Shown here piece by piece: positions 16,719 to 33,977 of a DNA stretch of 36,647 bases; position 1 is the stretch's first letter; each line of letters begins with the position of its first letter. The position numbers were made by a program, and so were the translations under genes. The notes beneath the pieces are model-generated. The model was given only the letters and a program-made list of their open reading frames with translations. It was not told the DNA's origin and did not search any database. This DNA comes from a virus. The stretch is taken from the IMG/VR virus record IMGVR_UViG_3300034196_000067, positions 172,796 through 209,442 of that record. The stretch is one strand, 5' to 3'.

Positions 16719-17603
16719 GTGGCTCTTCTCATCTCTTCTACTGAACTTCCTGAGCATTGGTACAACCGAGTCGCTACCTCGATCGAGCGCCTTCACTGGA
16801 AGGTGACATCGGTGGTGGCTGTATCTTTGGTAGTCGTCGTCGCATCTACCGACGCGGCTATCGATCGGCTTGCCGGCTCCGACATCAACCTCGTCTTGCT
16901 GTACCTCGTGCCTGTAGCCTTTGGCGCCTGGACAGGAAGAGCACGAATGGGCTGGGTCATCTCAACACTCAGCGCTCTCAGCGCCGTAGGTCCACACCTC
17001 ATATCCTCTCCAGAGCAATCTCTCGCGCTCAGCCTGAACATGGGCGTCGATATGCTCGTCTTCCTCTCCATCAGCTACGTGCTACCAGGCCTACGCAGCC
17101 TCCTAGAACACGAGAAACTGGTCTCTCGCACAGATCATCTCACAGGGGTTGCTAACTCCAGAGCGCTTCGAGAGAGGGCTTTGCGAGAGATACTGCGAGC
17201 ACGCAAGCACGGGTACGAGCTGTCGGTTGCGTATCTAGACGTAGACGATTTCAAAGCCATCAACGATAAGCACGGGCATGCAGGAGGCGATCGCATCCTC
17301 AAGCTCATCAGCTCTATCACTCGACAAGCTCTACGCTCCACAGACATGGTTGCGAGAGTAGGAGGAGATGAGTTCGCTCTACTCCTACCAAACACAGGAG
17401 CTGCGGCTGCGAAGCGCGTCGTGGAGAGAGTCCGTTCTGAGGTGTATCGAGCATCCCAGGCCGCTGGGGTAGAGGTGACGCTAAGCATCGGAGTGAAGAC
17501 CTTTGCTGATATCCCATTGAGCGTAGAAGAACTCGTCGAGTCCGTGGATCTTCTCATGTACTCCGTGAAGAGAGACCGGAAGGACGACGTCGTCTACGCC
17601 TGA
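16719..17603 (+). CDS. membrane-anchored GGDEF-domain diguanylate cyclase (294 aa), GTG start
   Basis: The N-terminal ~120 aa carries 3-4 hydrophobic helices. The C-terminal domain has the signature RTDHLTGVANSRAL...YLDVDDFKAINDKHGHAGGDRILK...RVGGDEFALLLP. The active-site motif reads GGDEF (intact). Confidence 0.85.
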   Translation: MALLISSTELPEHWYNRVATSIERLHWKVTSVVAVSLVVVVASTDAAIDRLAGSDINLVLLYLVPVAFGAWTGRARMGWVISTLSALSAVGPHLISSPEQSLALSLNMGVDMLVFLSISYVLPGLRSLLEHEKLVSRTDHLTGVANSRALRERALREILRARKHGYELSVAYLDVDDFKAINDKHGHAGGDRILKLISSITRQALRSTDMVARVGGDEFALLLPNTGAAAAKRVVERVRSEVYRASQAAGVEVTLSIGVKTFADIPLSVEELVESVDLLMYSVKRDRKDDVVYA

Positions 17604-20959: not shown

Positions 20960-21811
20960 CTAGTTGGTCCTCGGGTTGGTGCGAGTGCGCTTGAGGTTCT
21001 TCATCGTTCCACCCGTACCAGTGGCTGTGGAGATGATGTTCTTCATGGGACGGGAAGCTGAGTGGTGGACCGGGACCGAGCTCGCTTGAGGATTCGCAGC
21101 GGCATACAGAGGAGCCGCTGAGAGGTAGTGCTCAGTGATGCGAGCCTGGCTGAGCGCTCCGCTGTACACAGCCATGTCATTGAGACGGATGTTATTGGCA
21201 TAGTAGGACGTGGAATTCCCTAGAAGAGCGTTCGAGGAGTTTTTCACGGTCCCTGAAGAGACTGTCCCATACCCTGTCCCTAGAAGCACTTTGCCGTTCA
21301 CGTACCAAGATGCGCCATTCACAAAGGATCCGGAGCCATCCCAAACCATCACCAGGTGGACCCAAGCGCCTGCCGAGTACGTCGCGTTCGGTGATGAGTT
21401 CGTATAGTTGGAGGTACCGTTATTCATGAGGAAGCTGAAATGCCCTTGGTAGGCGTACATCGACCAAGCGTTCGAGGACGATCCCTTGCTGATGATTCCC
21501 AAGTTCGTAGTGAGGAAGCCTATGTCAGCGAACCAGCACTCAACGGTGAAAGGCTGGTTGTACTCGAAGTCCCCGACCGAGGTCGGTAGTGTGACGACTC
21601 CGTTCGAATTCCCCGGGAAGGATACACACAAGCTGTCTGCCTTACCTCCGCCTAGACCGATCAAACGGGCATCTTGCCCAATCACCATAGAACTACCGTA
21701 GACCCCGTTCCGCCCGTTTGGGGAAGAATCCACAGCCGTCGTCCCTGAAGACTCGATGAGTCTCCAAAAACCAACAGGAGAGTCTGCGAGCACTGCTGTA
21801 GCGTAGGACAT
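20960..21811 (-). CDS. LamG-like (concanavalin-A-type jellyroll, Laminin_G_3-like) domain protein, ~283 aa, putative receptor-binding/tail protein
   Basis: N-terminus MSYATAVLADSPVGFWRLIESSGTTAVDSSPNGRNGVYGSSMVIGQD...SLCVSFPGNSNGVVTLP...FTVECWF matches the LamG_3 pattern (a.yw.ldegsGttavDssgnghnGtl.g....). ATG 21811 lies 1 nt beyond the upstream stop. Confidence 0.7.
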   Translation of the reverse strand: MSYATAVLADSPVGFWRLIESSGTTAVDSSPNGRNGVYGSSMVIGQDARLIGLGGGKADSLCVSFPGNSNGVVTLPTSVGDFEYNQPFTVECWFADIGFLTTNLGIISKGSSSNAWSMYAYQGHFSFLMNNGTSNYTNSSPNATYSAGAWVHLVMVWDGSGSFVNGASWYVNGKVLLGTGYGTVSSGTVKNSSNALLGNSTSYYANNIRLNDMAVYSGALSQARITEHYLSAAPLYAAANPQASSVPVHHSASRPMKNIISTATGTGGTMKNLKRTRTNPRTN

Positions 21812-21813
21812 GG

Positions 21814-23160
21814 CTATAGGTTGACGGGCATGAGGAAGAAGCGAAAAGTGCATACCGGGAAATAGGTGTAGAGGATGACCTCTCCTATACTCGTAGAACT
21901 GTTGGTTCTAGAAGCAAAGGCGAAAGAAGACGCGCTGTACCCGTTGTACACGTCACCGGAAGGAGGCGTGTTATTCCCTACACTGCCGGGGAAGTCACAG
22001 CGAATCATCACGTAGGTGTTGCCGTCATCAGAGGGTCCAAAACTCGCAAGATGGAGACCACTCGGATTCATGATGGGGTACTTGAGGTACTTCACATCCC
22101 CTCGCTTCCCCTCATTCCCCACCATCCCTGTAGAGCTGGGCTTTGCACTCTGATACGCATCAACGTCGCAGTACTGAAACCGAGCTGCGTCGTCGAGACT
22201 GGTTCTCGTGAAGTCGTCGAGGTACGAATACCCTCTCGGAGAGAGGGTCGTCATGCAGGGATGCTGGATTACGGAGTTGGACCACATGGTGCTACTGATG
22301 GACTTCCAGATCTCAGCGCATCCCACTGTGTTATTGGCGTCTGTAATACTTGTCGCATAGTATGCGTTCAACCCTGAGTAATCCATGTTCGAACACGCAA
22401 AGAGGAGGCAGGAAGTGTCCCCTACTCTGTAGGGAGTGAGATTCCCGACGTAGAGAAAGTCTGCGACTCCAGAGAAAGATGGATCTCCTGATGTCCAGAG
22501 CCCAAGAGCATCAGGCAGTGCCCATAGGATGTACTGAATCTTGCTGGTCGAAGACTGTTGAGAGCTGAAGCCTCTCATGATCTCCATCGTGCTCGGGTTG
22601 GCGCCGACATGGGTTGATGCGTTCCATGTCTCATACACCTGGACGAATAGTAGATCTCCGTAAGAAGCACCCCGAGCCAGTAGAACGTAGAAGGTCTTCT
22701 GCTGGCTCGTACACTGAAGAACAACGTACCCACCGGTCTTGGTGTACGCCCTGCCAGGAGAGATGCTGGTTCCTGTGTAGTTGCGATCCAGAGTCGCTTG
22801 GTAACCGTTGGCGTTGGCCGCGTTGATGGTGTACCAGTTGGACTGATCCGAAGAGATCTGAGTGACTCCGGGAGCGATACACCTCGCAAAGCGCATCGCG
22901 TTGTTGTTGCCTTGCGAGATGGCGCTAGACCCGTTGGTCATCGTGGTCCCGTTCGCAGATACCAAGCCGGTGACGTAACCAGTACATGCAAACGGGACGA
23001 CCAGAGGGGTTCCAGACCTCTGGTCATCGTATAGAGTCCAACCATTCACGCCACTTCCGATGTCAGCCACGATATCGGAGAGGATGTTTGCGAAGCTCGA
23101 AACAGGAAGAGCGGTGTAGCCTTGAGGAGATCCACCAGTGTGAGGGAAGAACCCAGCCAT
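21814..23160 (-). CDS. hypothetical structural protein (448 aa), Ser/Thr/Gly/Asn-rich beta-type; probable tail/receptor-binding component
   Basis: Long ORF co-oriented and adjacent to the fibre and LamG genes. Composition is typical of phage distal-tail proteins. No specific motif. Confidence 0.65.
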   Translation of the reverse strand: MAGFFPHTGGSPQGYTALPVSSFANILSDIVADIGSGVNGWTLYDDQRSGTPLVVPFACTGYVTGLVSANGTTMTNGSSAISQGNNNAMRFARCIAPGVTQISSDQSNWYTINAANANGYQATLDRNYTGTSISPGRAYTKTGGYVVLQCTSQQKTFYVLLARGASYGDLLFVQVYETWNASTHVGANPSTMEIMRGFSSQQSSTSKIQYILWALPDALGLWTSGDPSFSGVADFLYVGNLTPYRVGDTSCLLFACSNMDYSGLNAYYATSITDANNTVGCAEIWKSISSTMWSNSVIQHPCMTTLSPRGYSYLDDFTRTSLDDAARFQYCDVDAYQSAKPSSTGMVGNEGKRGDVKYLKYPIMNPSGLHLASFGPSDDGNTYVMIRCDFPGSVGNNTPPSGDVYNGYSASSFAFASRTNSSTSIGEVILYTYFPVCTFRFFLMPVNL

Positions 23161-23166
23161 GTGTAG

Positions 23167-23811
23167 CTACCTCATTCCGTAGTCAACGATCTGCACTTCG
23201 AGGTTGGAAGAAGATGTTGCGATGCCGAGCTGGATCATTCGATTTCCGGCCGACAAGGATTCGTACAGAGCAGGATGCCCGTCCGTTGGACCTAGGAAGT
23301 AGGGAGTGCCTGGGGTGGCCCCTGAGAGGCCTCCAGTGAGTGCCCCGGCCACGAGAACCCCCACCCCGCCTCCTGATGCCACGGAGGCCGAAGCAACGCC
23401 TAGGACGAGGCTCTTGGCGTCGGTAGCGCAGTCTCCGTTCGCCACCCTCCCAGCCGAGGTGAGGTAGACCCCCGACCCCTTCGTGACTCCATTCGAGACG
23501 AAGGTGGGCATGAGGAGGGTGGCAGTAGGAGCTCCTGGCCCGGCGCTTCCAGTCTGGAAGGCGGCCGAGATGGCTACACCAAGTTGACGGTAGAAAAGCT
23601 GGGCTGCTGCCGTCGTGAGGGAGAGGGATGCGGGGCTCTGATCCGGTCCTGGGGGAAGAACAGTTGCAGAAGGAAGAAGAGAAGGATCCGTCCCCCCTAC
23701 TGCTCCGGACTCTATGAGTCGCAAGAAGGCTGCGACGAATGCTTCCGCGTTCGTGATGTCCGCGGTGGTGATCGGGAGAGGGCCGGTGGGAATCAGAACT
23801 GGATTCGGCAT
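23167..23811 (-). CDS. Gly/Ala/Ser-rich fibre-like protein (214 aa)
   Basis: ORF. C-terminal GSGVYLTSAGRVANGDC...GVLVAGALTGGLSGATPGTPYFLGPTDG is typical of phage fibre/decoration beta-rich domains. Assignment is weak. Confidence 0.6.
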   Translation of the reverse strand: MPNPVLIPTGPLPITTADITNAEAFVAAFLRLIESGAVGGTDPSLLPSATVLPPGPDQSPASLSLTTAAAQLFYRQLGVAISAAFQTGSAGPGAPTATLLMPTFVSNGVTKGSGVYLTSAGRVANGDCATDAKSLVLGVASASVASGGGVGVLVAGALTGGLSGATPGTPYFLGPTDGHPALYESLSAGNRMIQLGIATSSSNLEVQIVDYGMR

Positions 23812-24848: not shown

Positions 24849-25454
24849 ATGCCTCGTGGCATTTACGATCGCAGTCAGATGAAGCCGAAGGGGACGGCCA
24901 AGACCGCCAAGGCGGCCGAGCCCACCACCGGCGGTGGGTCCGCTCTCACCAACTCCCCTCTGAAGAGGAAGTACGTGAGGAAGGCCACCACACAAGCTCT
25001 CAAGGCTGTCCTCGACTCTCCCAAAGGGTTCGAGGCGTCTGGAACGGCGCCAGAGTCTGACCTCGGTGGCGTGGTCTTCTCTTCCGTCGGAATGCTCTAC
25101 ACCCATCTCGGTCAGCTCCACTCCGCAAGGGTGCAGCTCTCTCAGCAGAGCATCGACCACAACCCCAAGGTCATCGCCGTCATCGACGAAGAGATCATCG
25201 CCACGCTCGGCTCTCTGAAGATCTGGAGACAGAACACCTTCAAGACCGAGAGCAAGGAGCCGGAAGCGCAGACCCAGAGCATCCCGGTGATCCCGCCGGC
25301 CCTTGTCGCAGCGGCCCCAGCGCCTGCCCCGGCACCCGCTCCAGCGCCTGCCCCTGCGTTCCAGGGAGCCTCTACGATGACTCCGCCCCCCGCACCGCTC
25401 CCCTTCTCGCCCCAGACGGTCGAGGAAGTGCGCCGCGCATCCGGCCAGGCGTAA
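24849..25454 (+). CDS. Lys/Ala-rich histone-H1/AlgP-like protein with C-terminal (AP)n repeat (201 aa)
   Basis: SD 'aaggaag'. N-terminus MKPKGTAKTAKAAEPTTGG...KRKYVRKATTQALKA; C-terminus AAAPAPAPAPAPAPAPAF. Confidence 0.6.
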   Translation: MPRGIYDRSQMKPKGTAKTAKAAEPTTGGGSALTNSPLKRKYVRKATTQALKAVLDSPKGFEASGTAPESDLGGVVFSSVGMLYTHLGQLHSARVQLSQQSIDHNPKVIAVIDEEIIATLGSLKIWRQNTFKTESKEPEAQTQSIPVIPPALVAAAPAPAPAPAPAPAPAFQGASTMTPPPAPLPFSPQTVEEVRRASGQA

Positions 25455-25560: not shown

Positions 25561-25773
25561 ATGGCGCTACGAGGTACAGTGAAGTGGTTCAACGATGCAA
25601 AGGGCTACGGGTTCATCAAGCCTGACGATGGGGGGAAGGACATCTTTGTCCACCACTCCGTCATCAAGATGGATGGGTTCCGCACTCTCTCTGAAGGGGA
25701 GCGCGTCGAGTACACCATCGAGGCCGGGGCGAAGGGCCCGCAGGCCGTAAACGTCTCTCGCATCTCAGAGTAG
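25561..25773 (+). CDS. cspA: cold-shock protein, CspA family (70 aa)
   Basis: [65 protein letters not shown]. Carries the canonical RNP1 (KGYGFI) and RNP2 (VFVHH-like) cold-shock-domain motifs. Confidence 0.9.
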
Positions 25774-25854: not shown

Positions 25855-26571
25855 CTACGCTCCGATGGCTGCTTGAGCGGATGAGCCCGTGACCAGCGCG
25901 AGCTGAGCGACAGCGATGGGGACCACTCGCTCAGGCTGGAGTGCCACCTGCTCTTGCACCACACACCCCTGCGCGTCTGTCGCGATGGAGTGGGAGGGGA
26001 TGTACGTCTCCTCCAAGTAGAAGGCGCAGAGCGTGGTCTCGTTCGAGTCCTTCATGTAGACGAGAAGACCACACGGTTGCGAGAAGAGGTCCGACGCCAG
26101 GTTCAGGTAGATGTTCTCGAAGCCCGGCGGAATCTTCACGTCGTGTTGGTTGGCGACGCTCGCCATGATGTTCGGATCCACCCCGAACGTCGGAACGAGG
26201 GTGGGGGCCGGATCCTGGTAGAAGGCGTACATCACCCGGAGGATCGAGGGGCCGTTGTAGAGCACCCGTCCGAAGCCGGCCTGAGCGACGGTGCGCCCGG
26301 CGATGAAGTAGCTCCGCTCGCTCCCGAGCTCCCAGAAACGAGCGAAGGCCTTGTTGTGTGCGAGGTTGAAGTTCTGGACGATGCCGATGGGCAACGCCCA
26401 GTTCTGCTTGCCGACGGACGCCGCGGCTGCTGCTGATCCTCCCACGGCGGCGAGCCGGGGCGGACCAGCGGCGAGCATGGTGAAGACGCCCGAGGCGAAA
26501 CGGCCCTCTCCCAGGGCCGACGAGTTGTCGACTTTCTGGGAGTAGGGCTGCCAGTTCGTGATGGAGGACAT
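25855..26571 (-). CDS. structural protein (238 aa), candidate tail tube protein
   Basis: Second gene downstream of the sheath. The segment WALPIGIVQNFNL...FARFWELGSERSYFIAGRT loosely recalls, from memory, the T4 gp19 tube (ALPAGIVEKIPV...). Assignment is tentative. Confidence 0.5.
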   Translation of the reverse strand: MSSITNWQPYSQKVDNSSALGEGRFASGVFTMLAAGPPRLAAVGGSAAAAASVGKQNWALPIGIVQNFNLAHNKAFARFWELGSERSYFIAGRTVAQAGFGRVLYNGPSILRVMYAFYQDPAPTLVPTFGVDPNIMASVANQHDVKIPPGFENIYLNLASDLFSQPCGLLVYMKDSNETTLCAFYLEETYIPSHSIATDAQGCVVQEQVALQPERVVPIAVAQLALVTGSSAQAAIGA

Positions 26572-26611: not shown

Positions 26612-27253
26612 TTAGGCGTTGGCGAAGACCTCGAAGTCCTTCGAGCCATCGGCGAGGTTGCTCGCGGACGGAGTGAAGGCACTGTAGGTGAGGTCGATGG
26701 TGGAGACGTCCTGCACGCCTGCCACGAAGACCTGAACGTTGTCGCTCTGGAGCTTGACGGTCCCGCAGGCCAGCTTGTCGCCTGTGCCGAGAGAGACGAC
26801 GTTGGTGGCGTGAGTGTCGGTGCCGCTACCAGTGTAGCTCATGCGCGTGACGGTCTTGAAGATCTTCGTCCCGTACACGGCATTGCCCACACTGGCGACG
26901 ATGGTATCGCTGGCCGCCTTACCGAACTGATCGGTGCCTTCGACCAGGACATCGCCGCCATCCCAGTCCGCGCCGAAGGTGCAGGAGACATTCCGAGCGA
27001 ACGTGGGGTTGGTGGAAACCGTCACGCGCACCTTGGTGTCCGGGGCGACCGGAGCAGCGTCACCGAAGACGTTGGCATGAAGCACCGTGGCATTCTTCGC
27101 AGGCACGTCAGTGAGGGTGATCCTCACAGGAGAGCCCTTCACGTCTTCGGAGCCAGCTCCGTAAACGACGCCCTGGGCAGTGTAATCGCCCCTCCTCGCC
27201 AGGTTGGTGAGGAAGGTCCGAGCTCGATTCGAGAGGGAAGTGGGGACTGCCAT
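26612..27253 (-). CDS. structural protein (213 aa) immediately downstream of sheath (tube-position; tube or tube-associated)
   Basis: SD AAGGAG 8 nt upstream on the minus strand. Beta-rich composition. Confidence 0.6.
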   Translation of the reverse strand: MAVPTSLSNRARTFLTNLARRGDYTAQGVVYGAGSEDVKGSPVRITLTDVPAKNATVLHANVFGDAAPVAPDTKVRVTVSTNPTFARNVSCTFGADWDGGDVLVEGTDQFGKAASDTIVASVGNAVYGTKIFKTVTRMSYTGSGTDTHATNVVSLGTGDKLACGTVKLQSDNVQVFVAGVQDVSTIDLTYSAFTPSASNLADGSKDFEVFANA

Positions 27254-27282: not shown

Positions 27283-30200
27283 TCAGACCACGAGCGTGAG
27301 GCGGATGTAGTTGCAGGGGTACGGGACGTCGAGGGTCACGTCGATCATCACGGTGTCCGGGTTCTCCGGGTCCTGGATGATGTTGTTGAGCTGCGCTCCG
27401 TTGAGGATGCCATTGTCCTTCAGGAACTCCAGCATGCCGGTGATGGTCGTCCCGATGGTGTCGAGGAAGACTGAGGTGATGTTCTGCCGGCCGATGAAGC
27501 GACGGATACCTGCCCGAAGGAACTTGGCGACGAAGTCGACGTCCTTCGTGATCGAGAGCTCTCGCGTCTCGATGGTCGATGTGTCGGTGGAGAGCTGGTG
27601 CCGGCAGAATACCGGTCCGCCCTGCACCTCCTGCATGAGGATGAAGGCACCTCCACCCGCCATCTGATCGAGCTGCTTCTTGGTGAACTTCTCCGTCCCC
27701 ACCACCCCGGTGAGGCCGGTCATGGGGTAGTTGGTGAGTCCCTGCTGCGGAGGCAGGCCAGCGATCATGCCTGCCACGACCGCACAGGCGTAGTAGCCGG
27801 GGACTTCCTTCTCCAGACCCGCGACGGTGGTCTTCACCGTATCGGGGAAGAAGGAGTAGGCCCGCCGGTTCGCGATGCCAGAGTTCAGCGTCGCGACGGT
27901 AGAGGCGACGAGGGAGTAGTCCGGTTTGGCGGGGGAAGAGCCTGCGATCATCAGGCTCGCGCCGCGCACATTCATGCTCCAAGCCGCATCGAGGATGTCG
28001 GTTGGAAGGGCTACGACCTCGTAGAAGTAGTCGTCGTTCTCTCCGGCCGCGAAGGTGGTACGGAGATTCACGAGGCCGCCGGTCACCGAGGAGATTGAGT
28101 AACGGTAGAAGACGCCGTTCCAGTTGAACTCGATGTAGACGCCATTCGCCACGGTGAAGGGCAGTGACGGATTGATTCCGGCATCGACGAGACCAGCTTG
28201 AGGCGTGACGTCGACGAGGAGCTGGTCGGCAGTGGCAGTCGAGTTCGCAGAGACGCCACTCACGACCGCCCTTGGGGCGCGGGTAGTGGGCTGCGTCTTG
28301 TTGAAGAGGACGATTCGCTCGCCCATCTCCTCGGGCTGGCTCATCAGCGTGACGTGGGTGTTGAAGAGCTGATGCACCACATCATTCTGGGTGAGCAGTG
28401 CGATGGTGTAGACCTCTTCCGACTCCAAGAAGTCGGCTGCTCTGGCGTAGGCGAGCTCGGTTCCTTCCGGAGCGGAGCCAGAGATCTCGTCGACCCCGAG
28501 GGCACCGACCACGAATCCTGGGCAGTTGAGAAGAGCCAGGTAGGTACCGAAGGCGAGAGGGTTGGCGTCCGTCACCGGGTCCATCACCGAGGTGAGGGTG
28601 CTGGTGTCTTGGAGATGGACGACTCCCGCGACTGCCGCGGACGCCGAGACATCGCGACGAAGTCCCTTGAACTGGATGTAGAGAGATGCCGGGCTGGTGG
28701 CGAAGTCGAGGGGGTAGCCAGTGACTGGATCGCGGACGAGATCCGGACCGATCACCAGGTTGCTGCTCACATCGACGTAGGCGTCAGGATTCGGACGCCC
28801 TGTTCCGGCTGTCGCGGTCTGCGCTGCCGTGAAGCCGAGAGCCGTGAGAGCGGTTCCGTCGACGATGTAGACCAGAGATCCCGCGCCAGCAAGGGTGCTG
28901 GTGAGGACGAGGTTCGTCCCCGCTCCGTTCTTCGAAGCGACTGTGCCACCGACGAGCTGGTTGACGGTGTCGACGGCGATGTCGAGCGAGGTATCGGTGA
29001 AGCCCACATCGTAGACGTGAGCGCCTCGGTCTAGAGAGAATCGGAGGTTCTCTCCAGTGAGCCCAGAGAACGAAGCGTCGGTTCCGGTACCGCTGGTGTC
29101 CGCGCTGGTGGAGTAGCCGAGGACCGTGGCCGCGGAGCTCGTCGCCTTGAAGGTGATGCTCTGAAGCCTTCCCGTCTTGGCGGTGGCAAGCTTCAGCTTG
29201 CCGGAATCGACAGAGGCAACGACGCCCGTGATGCTGACGGCCGCAGCCATTCCGGCGACGGTGGTGACGGGGGTGGAGCTTGTGAAGGTGAACGTTCCGA
29301 CTGTCGCGACTCCATCCACCGTGAGGATGTAATCGATCCGGAGACCGGCGAGAGCCACGCCTCCGGACGGATCCGGGACGGCCCCGCCTTCGACCGAGGC
29401 GGCCACTGCTGCGGAAGCCGCAGCCGATCCCGTGACGGTGGACTTGGTTGCCGAAACGGTGGGCGAGAGCCCCGTTGCCTTGAACCACACGTACTGCGGC
29501 GCGAAGGGGGCAGCGTCGATGGGAAGACCGAGAAGAGCGTCGTCGTAGGTCTTCGAGAGGTAGCGGCCTTCCGTGTCAGCGGTAGAGAGGGCAGCGTCGA
29601 TGGTGCCCATCCGGAAGCGAGTCGGATCGACGCGAGAGATCTCACCGCTCTTGAGCCGCGTGCCGTCGGCCCAGATCTGATCCCCTGCCAGGATCGGGAT
29701 GCCGTTGGTGCCGAAGGTGATGGCGGCAGAGCGTGCATGCGTCAGCGCGCCTGTGGCGACGTTGATCATGCCGGCATGAGAGGCCCAGGCCGAGTCTGCC
29801 GAAGAGACCCCACCCACGCTGTAGTCGCCACGGAAGAACTCGATCCAGGCGCTCTGTGTGGTGTTGTTCTGGAGGTTGTATGCACGGTAGCCGGCGCCGC
29901 ACACCCTCTCTTCGGTTCCGACAGAGCCGACGGAGTTCCAGCCGATGCCGAGAAGAGCATTCGCCGTCCCACCCGCGCGCACCGTGATTGAGGAGAGCGC
30001 CCCGTAGCTCGGAGAGGAGAGACGGACGCCTGTGACGGAATCCCCCGACACAGTGACCGAAGCGATCGCCATCCCAAAGGCGTTGTTGATGACGGTGACG
30101 ATGTCGGCCGGCGCGTAAGGAGACGAGCCCGGAAACGGGATGGTCACGTCTTGCGTGGTGTTGGCCGTAGTCGGCTGGTCGATGGCGAGAACGAGGTTCT

Positions 30201-30600
30201 GCCCACCGATGGAGAAGCTGGTTCCGACGATGTCGAGGACCGCCTTGGACGCCACATGGCTTGCGACCAGGAAGCCTTCTCCAGGATTCATCAGGAGCTC
30301 AGCGAGCCGACCTCCTGTGTAGAGGAAGGGACGGATCGAAGCCGTCTGGATGTCGACCTCGTCGATGTTGCCTCGCGGGTTCGGGAAAGACGAATGGGTG
30401 ATCGTCTTTCCGAGCTGCGCGTAAGCACCGTACTTCGCCTTCGAGTTGATGGTTCCATCGGAGGTGAGGACGTTGATGACCTCGAAGGCCGCACCGACGA
30501 TGACCGGCGCGAGCGTCGGCGTGAGGAACGTCGGCGACGTCTTGCGCGCGGTCTGAATGACATCGACGCCTGGCCGGGCGATCTCAGCAGTGGCGGCCAT
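27283..30600 (-). CDS. contractile tail sheath protein, unusually large (1105 aa) with inserted surface domains
   Basis: N-terminus ARPGVDVIQTARKTSPTFLTPTLAPVIVGAAFEV fits the sheath N-terminal pattern (PGVyv.E.....s.t.vA.vG.a). C-terminus ...GGGAFILMQEVQGGPVFCRHQLSTD...SITKDVDFVAKFLRAGIRRFIGRQN...VMIDVTLDVPYPCNYIRLTLVV fits the sheath C-terminal domain. The central ~600 aa contain three related beta-sandwich-like segments. SD AAAGGAG precedes the ATG. Confidence 0.85.
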   Translation of the reverse strand: MAATAEIARPGVDVIQTARKTSPTFLTPTLAPVIVGAAFEVINVLTSDGTINSKAKYGAYAQLGKTITHSSFPNPRGNIDEVDIQTASIRPFLYTGGRLAELLMNPGEGFLVASHVASKAVLDIVGTSFSIGGQNLVLAIDQPTTANTTQDVTIPFPGSSPYAPADIVTVINNAFGMAIASVTVSGDSVTGVRLSSPSYGALSSITVRAGGTANALLGIGWNSVGSVGTEERVCGAGYRAYNLQNNTTQSAWIEFFRGDYSVGGVSSADSAWASHAGMINVATGALTHARSAAITFGTNGIPILAGDQIWADGTRLKSGEISRVDPTRFRMGTIDAALSTADTEGRYLSKTYDDALLGLPIDAAPFAPQYVWFKATGLSPTVSATKSTVTGSAAASAAVAASVEGGAVPDPSGGVALAGLRIDYILTVDGVATVGTFTFTSSTPVTTVAGMAAAVSITGVVASVDSGKLKLATAKTGRLQSITFKATSSAATVLGYSTSADTSGTGTDASFSGLTGENLRFSLDRGAHVYDVGFTDTSLDIAVDTVNQLVGGTVASKNGAGTNLVLTSTLAGAGSLVYIVDGTALTALGFTAAQTATAGTGRPNPDAYVDVSSNLVIGPDLVRDPVTGYPLDFATSPASLYIQFKGLRRDVSASAAVAGVVHLQDTSTLTSVMDPVTDANPLAFGTYLALLNCPGFVVGALGVDEISGSAPEGTELAYARAADFLESEEVYTIALLTQNDVVHQLFNTHVTLMSQPEEMGERIVLFNKTQPTTRAPRAVVSGVSANSTATADQLLVDVTPQAGLVDAGINPSLPFTVANGVYIEFNWNGVFYRYSISSVTGGLVNLRTTFAAGENDDYFYEVVALPTDILDAAWSMNVRGASLMIAGSSPAKPDYSLVASTVATLNSGIANRRAYSFFPDTVKTTVAGLEKEVPGYYACAVVAGMIAGLPPQQGLTNYPMTGLTGVVGTEKFTKKQLDQMAGGGAFILMQEVQGGPVFCRHQLSTDTSTIETRELSITKDVDFVAKFLRAGIRRFIGRQNITSVFLDTIGTTITGMLEFLKDNGILNGAQLNNIIQDPENPDTVMIDVTLDVPYPCNYIRLTLVV

Positions 30601-30612
30601 CTTCTGCTCCTT

Positions 30613-31374
30613 TCACTTCCGAAGCTTGCGGGGTCTCGGCACGAGAGTCGCGACCCGTTGAGTGAGCGAAATCACTTTTGTGTCCTTCAGAACTCGTCCA
30701 CCGATCGCCGGTTCTCGTAGAGCGGGTTGCTCTGCCGGCGTCGTGCCGTTGACCTCAGAAGTTAGTATCAGGTCGAGCTCTTTGAGAAGAAGTTTGTCTA
30801 CGGGCGAGATGCGATATGAATCCTGAAAGAAGAATGGGACTGTGACCGAGACAAGAGAAAAGTCCTTCCCAGAGTCAGGAAGAAGCGATCCTGCGTCTGT
30901 TTCCGCGCTGTAAGAGATGTCTTCTCCGACTCGGTGCATGCCTGCTCGAAGAAGATTCCTCTTGAGCGTTCGGGTCGCATACCCAGCGATCCAGGCAATG
31001 CGTTGTGCCTCCAACCCCTCACGAGCGAGACAGTTGTAGACCATGGTCGCAGCGACCAGGTCGGTGTGGGACTTGGCCCCCGTCTCGAAGTCGTAGTCCT
31101 TGAACTGATCCATCGAGATGTTGGACCAAGCAGCAGGCCCTCTCATGCAGACAATGGCGGGACGCTTCTCCAAGACATCAGCTCTCAACACCCCTTGATC
31201 ACTGACGAGGATGTCAGAGTTCTCTTGGTCCGGCTCCCACTTGTACGAGCCCTTGTCGAACGTGGAGAAGACGAGCTGAAGAAAGCGAACGAAGACCTTG
31301 GTGAAGTGGAGAAGGGGGTCTTCTCCAACTCCTTGTGGCTGCGGGGGCCCGTTGCTGTTCTTCAGCTCACTCAT
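30613..31374 (-). CDS. hypothetical structural protein (~253 aa) immediately upstream of sheath (position of a tail completion / sheath-stabiliser protein)
   Basis: ATG at 31374 (MSELKNS...) overlaps the upstream ORF stop as ATGAGTGA. The track start at 31434 lies inside the upstream ORF. The role is positional inference only. Confidence 0.6.
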   Translation of the reverse strand: MSELKNSNGPPQPQGVGEDPLLHFTKVFVRFLQLVFSTFDKGSYKWEPDQENSDILVSDQGVLRADVLEKRPAIVCMRGPAAWSNISMDQFKDYDFETGAKSHTDLVAATMVYNCLAREGLEAQRIAWIAGYATRTLKRNLLRAGMHRVGEDISYSAETDAGSLLPDSGKDFSLVSVTVPFFFQDSYRISPVDKLLLKELDLILTSEVNGTTPAEQPALREPAIGGRVLKDTKVISLTQRVATLVPRPRKLRK

Positions 31375-31747
31375 CAGACTCGACCATCTTCTGCTGACGG
31401 GTATTCGCGTAGTTCTGAGCGGCCATGAGCCCAACCATGGAGACGCCGAGAAGGGGGTAAAGCACTCGCTGTTTGAAAGCGGGGCTCATCTGCGGGTACT
31501 TGCTCTTGAGAGCGGTAGAGAGGCCCTTGTCAATGAGGGCCGCCGCTCCATGACCTGCTGCATACCCAAGGGCGTAGGTGGCACCCGACTTGAGGGCCTT
31601 CTTCCAGCGGGGGTTCTTCTTGATCGCATCTTCCGCGATCTTCTCGACCTCATCGAGACAAGAAGCGTTTCGCAGCTCGTTGCGCTGGTCAGCGAAGCGT
31701 GCCTTGTGGGTGGCCGAAAAACGACAGGATGTCCTTGTAGTCGGCAT
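31367..31747 (-). CDS. coupled ORF of uncertain start (>=105 aa open frame lacking ATG after the upstream stop)
   Basis: The frame is open from 31915 to 31367. The only ATGs lie inside the upstream 305-aa gene (31747, 31813). After 31689 there are ~100 codons without ATG/GTG/TTG. The C-terminal part (…GATYALGYAAGHGAAALIDKG…LLGVSMVGLMAAQNY) looks protein-like. Confidence 0.3.
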   Translation of the reverse strand: MPTTRTSCRFSATHKARFADQRNELRNASCLDEVEKIAEDAIKKNPRWKKALKSGATYALGYAAGHGAAALIDKGLSTALKSKYPQMSPAFKQRVLYPLLGVSMVGLMAAQNYANTRQQKMVESDE

Positions 31748-32606
31748 CGGGAGAGTCGATGTTCTGGGCGTTGCGGAAGTTCCTCTCGGAAGCAGGGACC
31801 AGTCCCTGAGCATCGATGTTGAGGGGAATGGAGTACTCGATGTCGCTTCTCGGGACCTCATGGAGCTGAAGCTCTTGATGAACGACAGCTCTAAGTCTCT
31901 GGGTTGGCACAACATTCACTACTCGCCAACGCCTATTCTCTGACTCGATGAGTATGTCCCGGGGGGAGACGGGTGGGAAGGATGAACACCGTGCGGCGGT
32001 GTTTGATGGCTGGGTCTCCCCCATGGCTTGAAGAGCCACCTGCTTCGGGTTGGGGTCGAATTGGATGAAGATCTCGACGGGAGAGAGGTAACCCCCAAGC
32101 CATCCTGTCCCAAAGCATGGGAGATGGTTGGACCGAGCGATGCGGTTCAGCGTGGCGTCGTAGCAAGAGCAACGAGGACCGAACGTGCGCGCTGGGAACA
32201 ACCAACTACGACGCCCGACGAACTCCCGGAAGAGTTGGTCTTCTTCCCGAATGATGGCGGAAGCGAGGATGTCTGGTGCCGCTTCTGAGGAGGCGGTGGG
32301 GCCCACCTCGGCTGTCTCATTCGTGCGCCGATCTACGATCCGAAGCTTGTAGAAGAACTGGCGCCACTTGTGGAGCGCGGGAACGCGATTGTCTCGGAAG
32401 CGATACAGGTCGCGGAAAGGCCCACCCATGACAGCATACGGCCCCATCGCTGCCTCAGAGCGCAGGACGAAGAAGTCGTAGTTGTAGATCTCGTGGCTCT
32501 TCAGATCCGAGTCTGTAGACGGACCCCTCACCGTCGAGATTTCCCAGAAGACGTCCAGGAAGTCGATGGAGAAGGAGCGTACCCAGAGCTTCGTGACTGT
32601 GAGCAC
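31689..32606 (-). CDS. hypothetical structural protein (305 aa), neck-protein position, GTG start
   Basis: GTG directly abuts the TAA of the upstream fibre gene (TAAGTG). Sequence contains CSCYD...LPCFGTGWLGGY. Confidence 0.6.
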   Translation of the reverse strand: MLTVTKLWVRSFSIDFLDVFWEISTVRGPSTDSDLKSHEIYNYDFFVLRSEAAMGPYAVMGGPFRDLYRFRDNRVPALHKWRQFFYKLRIVDRRTNETAEVGPTASSEAAPDILASAIIREEDQLFREFVGRRSWLFPARTFGPRCSCYDATLNRIARSNHLPCFGTGWLGGYLSPVEIFIQFDPNPKQVALQAMGETQPSNTAARCSSFPPVSPRDILIESENRRWRVVNVVPTQRLRAVVHQELQLHEVPRSDIEYSIPLNIDAQGLVPASERNFRNAQNIDSPDADYKDILSFFGHPQGTLR

Positions 32607-33977
32607 TTACGGATCCTTGAGCTTCGAGAACTGCTGGAGGTTGCTGGTGTTGGGGATGTAGGAGCCGGTGATGGAGTAGACCGCGATCGGGTTCGTCTTG
32701 TTGATGGCGTCGTTGCGCGTCGGGTAGATGCGGATCTTGCCGCTGATGAGGTTGTTTCGAGCGTCGAAGTCCGTGTCCTCGATCTGGACGTTCTCCCCAC
32801 AGAGCCCAAGAACCTTCGTCAGGTTATCCTTCACGGAGCTGAGCCAGACGTTGAAGTCCGAAGGGATGAGATCCGTCTTGGCCTTGATGTCTGTCAGGGT
32901 TCCGGACGCCGTACCAAGGCTACCAAGACCTGAAGCAACGGAGTCGAGAGCAGCTTTAGTAGAATGGAGGTCGTCTCCAGTCCCGAACCCCACCCCTTCG
33001 ATGGAGTCGAGCTTTCCTGAGATAGCAGCGAGGTCGGTGGCAGGTGTTCCCTTGACCCCAGCAATGGCAGTCGTGATCACTTCCTGAGAGGTGGTGATCG
33101 CCCCTTCGATACCCGACTCCGCAGTTCCGAGGGCGTCTGTGACTACCGTCTGCGAAGAACCGATCTGGGAGAAGACCTCTGAGAGATCCTTGCTGGAAGC
33201 GCCTTTGAGGCTTGCGACTGCTCCTGAGACGTCTCCAGAGCTCGCAGGTGCGGCGGGGATGAGGTCCGTCTGAGCCTTGATGTCCGCGGCCAGTGTAGAG
33301 GTGTTTGAGTTGATGCTCGTCACGGCACTCGTGACATCCCCTGTCGTAGCCGGAGCCGCAGGAAGGTTGTCTGTCTTCGCCTTTACCGCGAGCACATCCG
33401 TGTCTACTTGGGTGAGGTCTTTGGAAGACGCTCCCATGATAGCGGCCTGTGCCGAAGTCACGTCTGCTTGAGCCGCAGGCGTTGCGGGAAGATTGTCTGT
33501 CTGGGACTTGACTGCGAGAACGTCGGTATCGACCTGAGAGAGGTCCTTGCTTGACGCACCCTTGATGCTGGTGACGGCGCTTGTCACATCACTCTGGGAA
33601 GCAGGGGTAGCAGGCAAGTTGTCGGTCTTGGTTTTGACTGCCAAGACGTCGGTGTCGACTTGAGACAGGTCCTTGTTCGAGGCGCCTTTGACTCCTGTCA
33701 CTGCGGCATCGATGTAACCAGTGTTGAAGAGCTGGTCCTGGTCCTTGAGAGTGGCGCCGAGAGACACTCCTCCGGCAGAGACGCGGAAGATGACGTTGTG
33801 AACACCTGTCGGAGCAGCCGACCAGTCGTAGTCGAAGTAGTACCACCCGTCCCCGCTCGTGACCTCCGTAATGGTCGGAGGCGTAGAGAGGTCAGCCAAG
33901 GTATCGAGCCGCTTCCAGATGCTGAAGGCCGGAGTGAGGCCGGTCTTCCCTGCACCGAAATCAAGACCGTATCGCAT
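32607..33977 (-). CDS. repeat-containing fibre/whisker-like protein (456 aa) with four ~38-aa 'SIKGASSKDLSQVDTDVLAVK-x-KTDNLPATPA' repeats
   Basis: SD GAGAGG. Tandem protein repeats correspond to ~114-bp DNA repeats at ~33240-33700. Paralogue of 19322-20959. Confidence 0.8.
   Translation of the reverse strand: MRYGLDFGAGKTGLTPAFSIWKRLDTLADLSTPPTITEVTSGDGWYYFDYDWSAAPTGVHNVIFRVSAGGVSLGATLKDQDQLFNTGYIDAAVTGVKGASNKDLSQVDTDVLAVKTKTDNLPATPASQSDVTSAVTSIKGASSKDLSQVDTDVLAVKSQTDNLPATPAAQADVTSAQAAIMGASSKDLTQVDTDVLAVKAKTDNLPAAPATTGDVTSAVTSINSNTSTLAADIKAQTDLIPAAPASSGDVSGAVASLKGASSKDLSEVFSQIGSSQTVVTDALGTAESGIEGAITTSQEVITTAIAGVKGTPATDLAAISGKLDSIEGVGFGTGDDLHSTKAALDSVASGLGSLGTASGTLTDIKAKTDLIPSDFNVWLSSVKDNLTKVLGLCGENVQIEDTDFDARNNLISGKIRIYPTRNDAINKTNPIAVYSITGSYIPNTSNLQQFSKLKDP
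33240..33700 (-). repeat. 4 x ~114-bp imperfect tandem coding repeats
   Basis: Seen directly, e.g. ggaaggttgtctgtcttcgcct / gggaagattgtctgtctgggact / ggcaagttgtcggtcttggtttt units. Confidence 0.6.

Follow-up and report, generated by a model that had tools for sequence, protein, structure and literature searches.

A contractile tail sheath of 1105 residues carrying three FliD-like modules in an uncultured large phage

The DNA examined here, referred to below as the window, comprises 36,647 nucleotides (positions 172,796 to 209,442 of IMG/VR virus record IMGVR_UViG_3300034196_000067) and carries on its minus strand a long gene whose product is a contractile tail sheath. A preliminary description of this stretch had noted an open reading frame (ORF) of 1105 codons at 27283..30600, about twice the length of a typical sheath gene; both the extent and the size were confirmed, and the additional length is due to inserted domains. 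Domain boundaries were placed using the secondary structure of an AlphaFold2 model, family hidden Markov models (HMMs), and hhalign comparisons, which delimited five accessory units (R1, B, R2, R3, and ins2) nested into a sheath core. The gene and its parts are listed below, with mean pairwise identities within the family.

27283..30600, minus strand: complete sheath gene, 1105 residues and a stop codon, uninterrupted frame in the ORF listing.
30607..30612, minus strand: Shine-Dalgarno sequence AAGGAG, 6 nt 5' of the ATG at 30600, read from the sequence.
30523..30600, minus strand: N-terminal arm, residues 1–26 (MAATAEIARPGVDVIQ...), 64% identity, disordered in the model.
30226..30522, minus strand: N-proximal beta-rich segment, residues 27–125, nine beta strands and no helix, 58% identity.
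29935..30225, minus strand: module R1, residues 126–222, 78 bits with the module HMM, also recognized by hhalign, 52% identity.
29386..29928, minus strand: beta-rich accessory domain B, residues 225–405, all-beta in the model with a predicted local distance difference test score (pLDDT) of about 90, 49% identity.
29104..29367, minus strand: module R2, residues 412–499, 64 bits with the module HMM, also recognized by hhalign and secondary structure, 48% identity.
28822..29076, minus strand: module R3, residues 509–593, 76 bits with the module HMM, also recognized by hhalign, 48% identity.
28291..28803, minus strand: middle alpha/beta domain of the sheath core, residues ~600–770, common to the homologs Arash gp236 and D181_0288, 62% identity.
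27931..28290, minus strand: second insert, ins2, beta-rich, residues 771–890, delimited by secondary structure and conserved in the family, 53% identity.
27286..27930, minus strand: sheath C-terminal domain, residues 891–1105, matched by PHROG 279 and Pfam sheath domains, 67% identity, the most conserved region.

A protein of this size might be the product of an assembly or frameshift error that joined two genes, as the preliminary description had itself cautioned, and its unusual length is the only point in favor of such an origin. The TGA of the upstream gene (30613–30615) stands directly before the AAGGAG of the sheath gene, giving a canonical ribosome-binding site. A database search returned 102 homologs of 865–1445 residues with 37–73% identity, nearly all of them full length (1096–1445 residues); their source assemblies are those of JGI, ENA, NCBI, and Logan, and many of the homologs lie on contigs 195–210 kb long. 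A second sample of the family, obtained from 50–90% clustering, holds at least 142 full-length members from independent metagenomes, in which the order of N-terminal segment, R1, B, R2, R3, middle domain, ins2, and C-terminal domain is common to all. Start and stop are conserved, with Met1, Ala2, and a C-terminal Thr-Leu near-invariant across the homologs, and the single-chain model is confident. Furthermore, the identical 1105-residue protein occurs on three contigs from two assembly sources, including the 209,442-bp JGI contig and an independent 109-kb Logan contig. Because of this ribosome-binding site, the full-length homologs, the near-invariant ends, and the identical protein on independent assemblies, a frameshift fusion is excluded and its residual probability is negligible; the frame is real and intact.

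The sheath profile PHROG 279 matches residues 930–1105 (profile positions 301–482 of 489) with E = 1.6e-16, and Pfam Phage_sheath_1C (PF17482) gives a weak, sub-threshold match to residues 1014–1104. Its tblastn matches include proteins annotated as sheaths in phage G and Phrappuccino. We built an AlphaFold2 model of the full protein on a 102-sequence alignment; it has a mean pLDDT of 89.9 and a predicted template modeling score (pTM) of 0.77, and disorder is confined to residues 1–26. When this model was compared with the PDB using Foldseek, all of the 50 best matches were contractile sheaths (probability 1.00, target-normalized template modeling score 0.35–0.69), including those of phage 812, diffocin, Lin1278, pyocin, AFP, PVC, and the contractile injection systems of Streptomyces, Anabaena, and Algoriphagus. 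The best match for the core is the phage 812 sheath, and the model contains the two-domain alpha/beta fold of the sheath core. Since these alignments, to sheaths of 350–560 residues, span approximately 380–530 columns including gaps, they would correspond to one contiguous stretch, for which the C-terminal ~480 residues are the only candidate. The PHROG match and the structural searches together uphold the earlier identification of the protein as a tail sheath.

The preliminary description had further assigned about 250 residues at each end to conserved sheath regions. This assignment holds for the C-terminal ~200 residues, which match sheath profiles, but not for the N-terminal 250: no profile matched residues 1–260, a search of residues 1–240 against the PDB returned none at E ≤ 10, and residues 126–222 constitute module R1. 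The nearest cultured homologs are gp236 of Salmonella phage Arash (706 residues, annotated "structural protein" in GenBank) and VPHD181_0288 of Vibrio phage D181 (701 residues), which share 26–27% identity with the protein over residues 636–1105 and the first ~50 residues; by family HMMs, what is common at the N-terminus is only residues ~4–54. This conserved stretch follows the pattern ..RPGVDVIQ.....P..L.P.IVG., which we take to resemble the usual sheath N-terminus. The sheath-conserved N-terminal part thus comprises about 55 residues, and at most about 125, with residues 27–125 either belonging to the sheath N-terminal domain or forming a small domain of their own. The arm itself (residues 1–26) is conserved, with 64% mean pairwise identity, yet falls below a pLDDT of 50 in the monomer model; by its likeness to XM1 and pyocin, it may be the strand-exchange ("handshake") arm (PMC10457771).

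Taken together, the sheath core consists of the N-terminal arm (residues ~1–55) and the C-terminal ~480 residues (~620–1105), and the accessory remainder makes up approximately 60% of the protein (~670 of 1105 residues). The Arash and D181 homologs are 400 residues shorter, and the R modules, domain B, and ins2 are undetectable in them with the family HMMs. Domain B, which is conserved family-wide, is unrelated to the modules by hhalign tiling. Mean pairwise identity is 48–53% for the accessory domains compared to 58–67% for the core, and the accessory domains are therefore constrained rather than hypervariable. Sub-threshold Pfam matches of the full protein to DUF4309 and DUF7726 (E 0.04–0.06) were disregarded.

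Three mutually similar segments had been quoted in the preliminary description. These map to residues 182–211 (in R1), 461–489 (in R2), and 550–580 (in R3), and they represent the last three strands, or C-terminal halves, of modules with a repeat unit of about 90 residues rather than 30. We compared family sub-alignments of residues 128–222, 410–500, and 505–595 using hhalign, and obtained probabilities of 97% for R1 with R2 (E = 4e-11), 98% for R1 with R3 (E = 1e-13), and 93% for R2 with R3 (E = 4e-7). As a control, 90-residue tiles were drawn across the whole protein, and the tiles off the modules all remained below 8% probability, so that the proposed similarity stands beyond chance at the profile level. 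The repeats surfaced at that level only: a self-BLAST of the single sequence gave no off-diagonal match, and in a joint alignment R1, R2, and R3 of the 1105-residue sheath are 19–27% identical to one another. Nearly invariant motifs, such as GALSSVTVRAGGSAN, recur in the family alignment of the modules. These comparisons establish that the three modules are homologous to one another and, as judged from sequence, derived by duplication. At the DNA level, TRF detected no tandem repeats within the sheath gene, and we therefore regard the duplications as old and reject a recent event. The modules are inserted, as had been proposed, but they are not three tandem inserts in the middle of the protein, as R1 and R2 lie ~190 residues apart with the 180-residue beta-rich domain between them, and a further insert is found at residues 771–890.

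The secondary structure of the modules follows the order b-b-a-b-b-b. In R1, strands at 134–140 and 152–156 precede a helix at 164–175, and strands at 180–185, 188–195, and 204–207 follow it; in the AlphaFold2 model each module has one such helix of 7–12 residues (164–175, 448–454, and 539–550). A separate model of residues 126–600, with a pLDDT of 89.8, was also searched against the PDB using Foldseek. Its top matches are FliD, the XM1 sheath, FlaA and FlaD of V. cholerae, and the sheaths of phages 7-7-1 and Milano, with weak E-values because a small domain is being matched within a 475-residue query. In sequence searches, a profile built from 36 copies of the module finds FliD among PDB sequences over nearly the whole profile length (6sih, E = 0.008; 9gsx, E = 0.015) and XM1 gp6 at residues 125–183 (E = 0.15), the same chain position as R1 (126–222). 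Matches of this profile to a fucose lectin (RSL) were rejected as spurious, being 27-residue repeated matches to beta-propeller blades. The modules share with the D2–D3 domains of FliD and with flagellin outer domains the pattern ..IN..vG..vAs....L.L.S..G., and in both cases variable, outward domains are nested in the core of a helical polymer; they differ in that identity is 14–20% and that the module-bearing protein is a phage sheath without the D0/D1 coiled-coil segments. The modules thus resemble the FliD D2–D3 fold, and, like the insertion domain (InD) of XM1, they are compact and nested in the sheath N-terminal domain. We conclude that they carry a fold of the FliD-D3/flagellin-outer-domain type, which is that of the InD of ordinary ~500-residue sheaths.

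This conclusion departs from the immunoglobulin (Ig)-like, beta-sandwich nature given to the three segments in the preliminary description, according to which they would be tandem decoration domains with an adhesive function. That proposal has precedent, in that the extra domains of multi-domain sheaths are mostly reported to be Ig-like and adhesion has been hypothesized for them (PMC9230969), and residues 225–405 and 771–890, which are beta-rich, could be sandwich-like. For R1–R3, however, the helix present in each module means that they are not all-beta Ig sandwiches, which refutes the fold part of the proposal. Moreover, the closest matches by structure are to FliD, flagellin, and the insertion domains of sheaths, whereas antibody or Ig-type Foldseek matches of the 126–600 model reach a probability of at most 0.12. 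Among the 36 module copies, Pfam identified no established Ig, FN3, or Big family; the sole Ig-named match was one copy to Gmad2 (E = 0.041), amid otherwise scattered noise. Pfam searches of the isolated modules, of residues 1–260, and of residues 221–600 likewise returned nothing meaningful. With R1 standing 190 residues from R2, the modules are also not all in tandem. Tandem Ig-like adhesive domains are therefore a very unlikely explanation of the inserts.

Among the closest known arrangements is that of the sheath gp6 of Vibrio phage XM1 (PDB 7KH1/7KJK), which combines a contractile core with an InD in the N-terminal domain and matches the module profile at the position of R1. This InD is nested in the N-terminal domain and points outward, and its likeness to FliD D3 was noted by the XM1 authors (PMC10457771). 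Sheaths of ~500 residues with a single InD of this kind are also found in Pseudomonas phage E217 (gp31), Mu, and cyanophage A-1(L). In contrast to the one InD in 497 residues of XM1, the 1105-residue sheath has three modules (its relatives, two to five) and two more beta-rich inserts in 2.2 times the length, and there is no significant sequence similarity to XM1 outside the module. The sheaths of T4 (gp18, 659 residues) and Staphylococcus phage 812 (587 residues) similarly have outer domains nested after an N-terminal segment and dispensable for the contractile core (PMC9230969), although these differ in type and number and are unrelated in sequence.

Sheaths described in the literature are 321 to 1283 residues long, mostly 350–700, and carry any extra domains away from the tube, with domain number and sheath length scaling with genome size (PMC9230969). 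Giant "type 3" sheaths with five or more domains have been modeled for Atu_ph07 (1086 residues) and for the metagenomic huge phages Mad1_20_16 (1248 residues) and LacPavin_0818_WC45 (1283 residues) (Evseev et al. 2022, PMC9230969). The present protein resembles these in having more than 1000 residues, five or more domains, an origin in a phage with a large genome, and a conserved core to which both the N- and the C-terminal part contribute. It combines a main domain with at least two compact extra domains predicted to lie away from the tube-facing side, and so belongs with type 3. The accessory domains of the known type 3 sheaths are, by contrast, described as mostly Ig-like. HMMs of the module and core scored at most 4 bits on all three giant sheaths, which we therefore rejected as family members or module carriers, and the family motif YPCNYI occurs in none of the 199 supplementary files accompanying that study (PMC9230969). 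Separately, residues 197–232 of the sheath of Agrobacterium phage Atu_ph07 show a sub-threshold match to Pfam Flagellin_IN (19.6 bits, E = 1e-3) that looks module-like by eye and is negative with the module HMM; FliD-like modules may therefore serve other giant sheath lineages. Because sheaths of 1086–1283 residues with five or more domains were already published (PMC9230969), the idea that this sheath is exceptional is weakened. Giant multi-domain sheaths (PMC9230969) and a sheath with one FliD-like insertion domain (XM1, PMC10457771) are thus known; the papers searched and read do not describe a FliD-like domain that is multiplied within one sheath, that varies in copy number across a family, or that recurs as long arrays in other large proteins.

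Module number varies within the family. In 52 of the 102 homologs, an insert of 120–130 residues after residue ~513, just before R3, constitutes a fourth module (hhalign 97% with R2), and among the 142 full-length members two to five modules are detectable, with lengths of up to 1667 residues; the largest carry extra material beyond the mapped domains. The module is also not confined to sheaths. An exhaustive module-profile search of 1.84 billion representative proteins identified 661 that carry it at E ≤ 1e-3. The best 150 of these 661 matches comprise 146 new representatives, of which ~40 belong to this sheath family and the other 102 are different proteins (P0110–P0248), mostly of 1000–1850 residues and without the core regions of this sheath. 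In these proteins the modules form arrays of up to nine matched stretches, or one to eight by a stricter count. One array protein, P0112 (locus L005, 8001–12833), adjoins a Phage_base_V (spike) gene in a baseplate-type cluster, and on this basis some array proteins are probably baseplate or fiber proteins of contractile systems. Another non-sheath module protein has a weak match to a baseplate PHROG.

The genes around the sheath form a minus-strand block syntenic with the tail regions of Arash and D181, in which a 305-residue product corresponds to gp234, the sheath to gp236, and a 238-residue product to gp237. The flanking genes of this block are as follows.

31689..32606, minus strand: 305-residue gene, homolog of Arash gp234 (virion structural protein), upstream of the sheath gene; tblastn E = 4.5e-14 (Arash) and 1.2e-9 (D181).
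26612..27253, minus strand: additional 213-residue orphan ORF between the sheath and gp237-like genes, absent from this position in Arash and D181.
25855..26571, minus strand: 238-residue gene, homolog of Arash gp237, downstream of the sheath gene; BLASTP E = 2e-18, also matched by tblastn to both Arash and D181.

In Arash and D181, gp237 is the gene next after the sheath homolog, with no 213-residue gene following the sheath. The 213-residue ORF shows no relationship to Arash gp237, and neither profile nor PDB searches matched it. From its position, one might guess that the 238-residue gp237-like gene encodes the tail tube. Matches of the downstream ORFs to beta-lactamase and formate dehydrogenase (E > 0.01) were dismissed as noise.

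This neighborhood bears on whether the sheath could instead belong to a non-phage contractile injection system (a tailocin or extracellular contractile injection system, eCIS) residing in a bacterial genome. The Foldseek matches do include eCIS, AFP, PVC, and pyocin sheaths, the window holds bacterial-type genes (GGDEF and cold-shock protein), and no gene of the window was recognized as encoding a capsid, portal, or terminase protein. On the other hand, the nearest annotated homologs are virion structural genes of two lytic phages, Arash (181 kb) and D181 (187 kb), in which the synteny also matches, and many contigs of the family cluster at 195–210 kb, a length typical for large phage genomes that are complete. 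In addition, nearly all remaining ORFs in the window are orphans, as in large phages, and the sheaths of eCIS and tailocins are single-domain proteins of 350–450 residues (PMC9230969). A bacterial injection system is hence an exceedingly improbable source of this sheath.

Several other genes of the window deserve mention. A 294-residue ORF (16719–17603, plus strand) strongly matches the diguanylate cyclase domain GGDEF (Pfam PF00990, E = 3e-35) and is a possible phage-encoded cyclic di-GMP synthase; the genome that carries it appears to be that of a large phage. A CspA-type cold-shock gene of 70 residues (25561–25773, plus strand; phrog_729, E = 1.4e-23) lies on the opposite strand inside the tail block, just downstream of the sheath and gp237-like genes. 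Upstream of the sheath block, a 456-residue ORF (32607–33977, minus strand) contains three tandem 126-nt (42-residue) repeats at 33331–33705 (KGASSKDLSQVDTDVLAVK.KTDNLPATPA..DVTSAVTSI) with 65–72% DNA identity, which TRF missed and a second repeat search found; these 42-residue repeats suggest a fibrous structural protein. Downstream of the block, a 297-residue ORF (20960–21853, minus strand; called elsewhere as a 283-residue gene) has a precomputed Pfam Laminin_G_3 match and weak matches to PHROG "virion structural protein" entries, and a 214-residue ORF (23167–23811, minus strand) matches phrog_4368; both are probable tail-fiber or baseplate-region proteins. A 201-residue ORF (24849–25454, plus strand), antisense to the tail genes, has, close to its C-terminus, an alternating Ala-Pro run (APAPAPAPAPAPAPAPA) and weakly matches phrog_14234. 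Scanning the window for tRNA genes gave none.

Our interpretation, which we consider well supported, is that the protein is the contractile sheath subunit of an uncultured phage of ~200–210 kb, enlarged by nested accessory domains that are predicted to form an outer layer. By analogy with the solved sheaths of XM1, T4, and 812 (PMC10457771, PMC9230969), the core would assemble into stacked hexameric rings that enclose the tail tube and are joined by N- and C-terminal strand exchange, and contraction would be driven by rigid-body rotation of the core subunits, a process for which the accessory domains are presumably not needed. The accessory domains are expected to point outward and to form a thick outer layer on the tail, which agrees, at the strength of an analogy with solved sheaths, with the surface exposure predicted for the inserts in the preliminary description. 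This layer most likely stabilizes a long tail through contacts between neighboring subunits, in the manner of flagellin outer domains and the outer domains of T4 and 812. We favor a stabilizing role as a best guess because of the moderate conservation of the accessory domains, their nearly invariant motifs, and the likeness to flagellin outer domains.

The outer layer may also add weak adhesion to surfaces, and the main functional rival to a stabilizing layer is that the FliD-like modules act chiefly as adhesins for host surfaces, binding glycans or flagella and giving the tail shaft reversible adsorption instead of serving as structural cement. Some FliD and flagellin outer domains have been reported to bind host glycans. 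The fold that the modules have in common with these domains, their predicted exposure, and their plastic copy number are in keeping with such a function, as are the arrays of seven to nine stretches (one to eight by the stricter count) in large proteins, one of them encoded in a baseplate-type cluster, the home of receptor-binding proteins. However, the modules are not hypervariable, with an identity of 48–52% that is near that of the core; their near-invariant motifs (GALSSVTVRAGGSAN) fit protein-protein packing better than fast-evolving receptor binding; and neither the three modules nor the 36 copies match a carbohydrate-binding family in Pfam. A predominantly adhesive role for the modules therefore seems possible but unlikely, and the adhesive function that the preliminary description had attached to the sheath is neither supported nor excluded.

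Several observations weigh against the reading of the protein as a phage sheath with an outer layer of FliD-like modules. The Pfam Phage_sheath_1 (PF04984) match to residues 906–997 has E = 4e-6 and its 27.1 bits fall below the 31.4-bit gathering cutoff, and a whole-family profile retrieved nothing from PDB sequences at E ≤ 0.01. PHROG, Pfam, and PDB searches of the 213- and 238-residue downstream ORFs for a tube gene returned only noise. Sequence similarity of the modules to FliD is marginal, and Pfam Flagellin_IN (PF07196) gave no match at E ≤ 10 to the three modules of this sheath or to the 36 copies. Other module-bearing proteins recurrently come close to the 22.7-bit gathering threshold of Flagellin_IN, with 15.9–22.5 bits exactly where the module aligns, which favors the FliD-type fold, but all stay below it, and by this measure the modules would not be counted as members of that family. 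Furthermore, the folds of residues 27–125, 225–405, and 771–890 are without assignment in the models, the isolated insert region has a pTM of 0.57 that leaves the relative arrangement of its domains uncertain, and the outward position and any lattice contacts are predictions by analogy with solved sheaths.

A bolder extension, which we regard as rather doubtful, is that the FliD/flagellin-outer-domain-like module is a portable block that large phages have multiplied into a second, ordered outer shell with a lattice of its own, and, strung together in up to eight or nine copies, into baseplate-associated proteins. If this were true, the outer shell could alter tail mechanics, such as stiffness and the trigger or extent of contraction, or could mimic or bind flagellar surfaces.

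At the level of the preferred reading, that of a contractile sheath with nested accessory domains, the analysis provides a confident annotation and a domain map for a large phage protein family of at least 142 members, all of them "hypothetical" or unnamed at source, and this sheath family marks a clade of uncultured ~200 kb phages. Enlargement in this family proceeded via a duplicated FliD-like insertion domain of the sheath rather than the commonly cited Ig-like domains, with copies that still vary from two to five. While no new mechanism is implied, these results bear on the evolution of tail surfaces and on an old structural relationship, that of flagellar outer domains to the decorations of phage tails.

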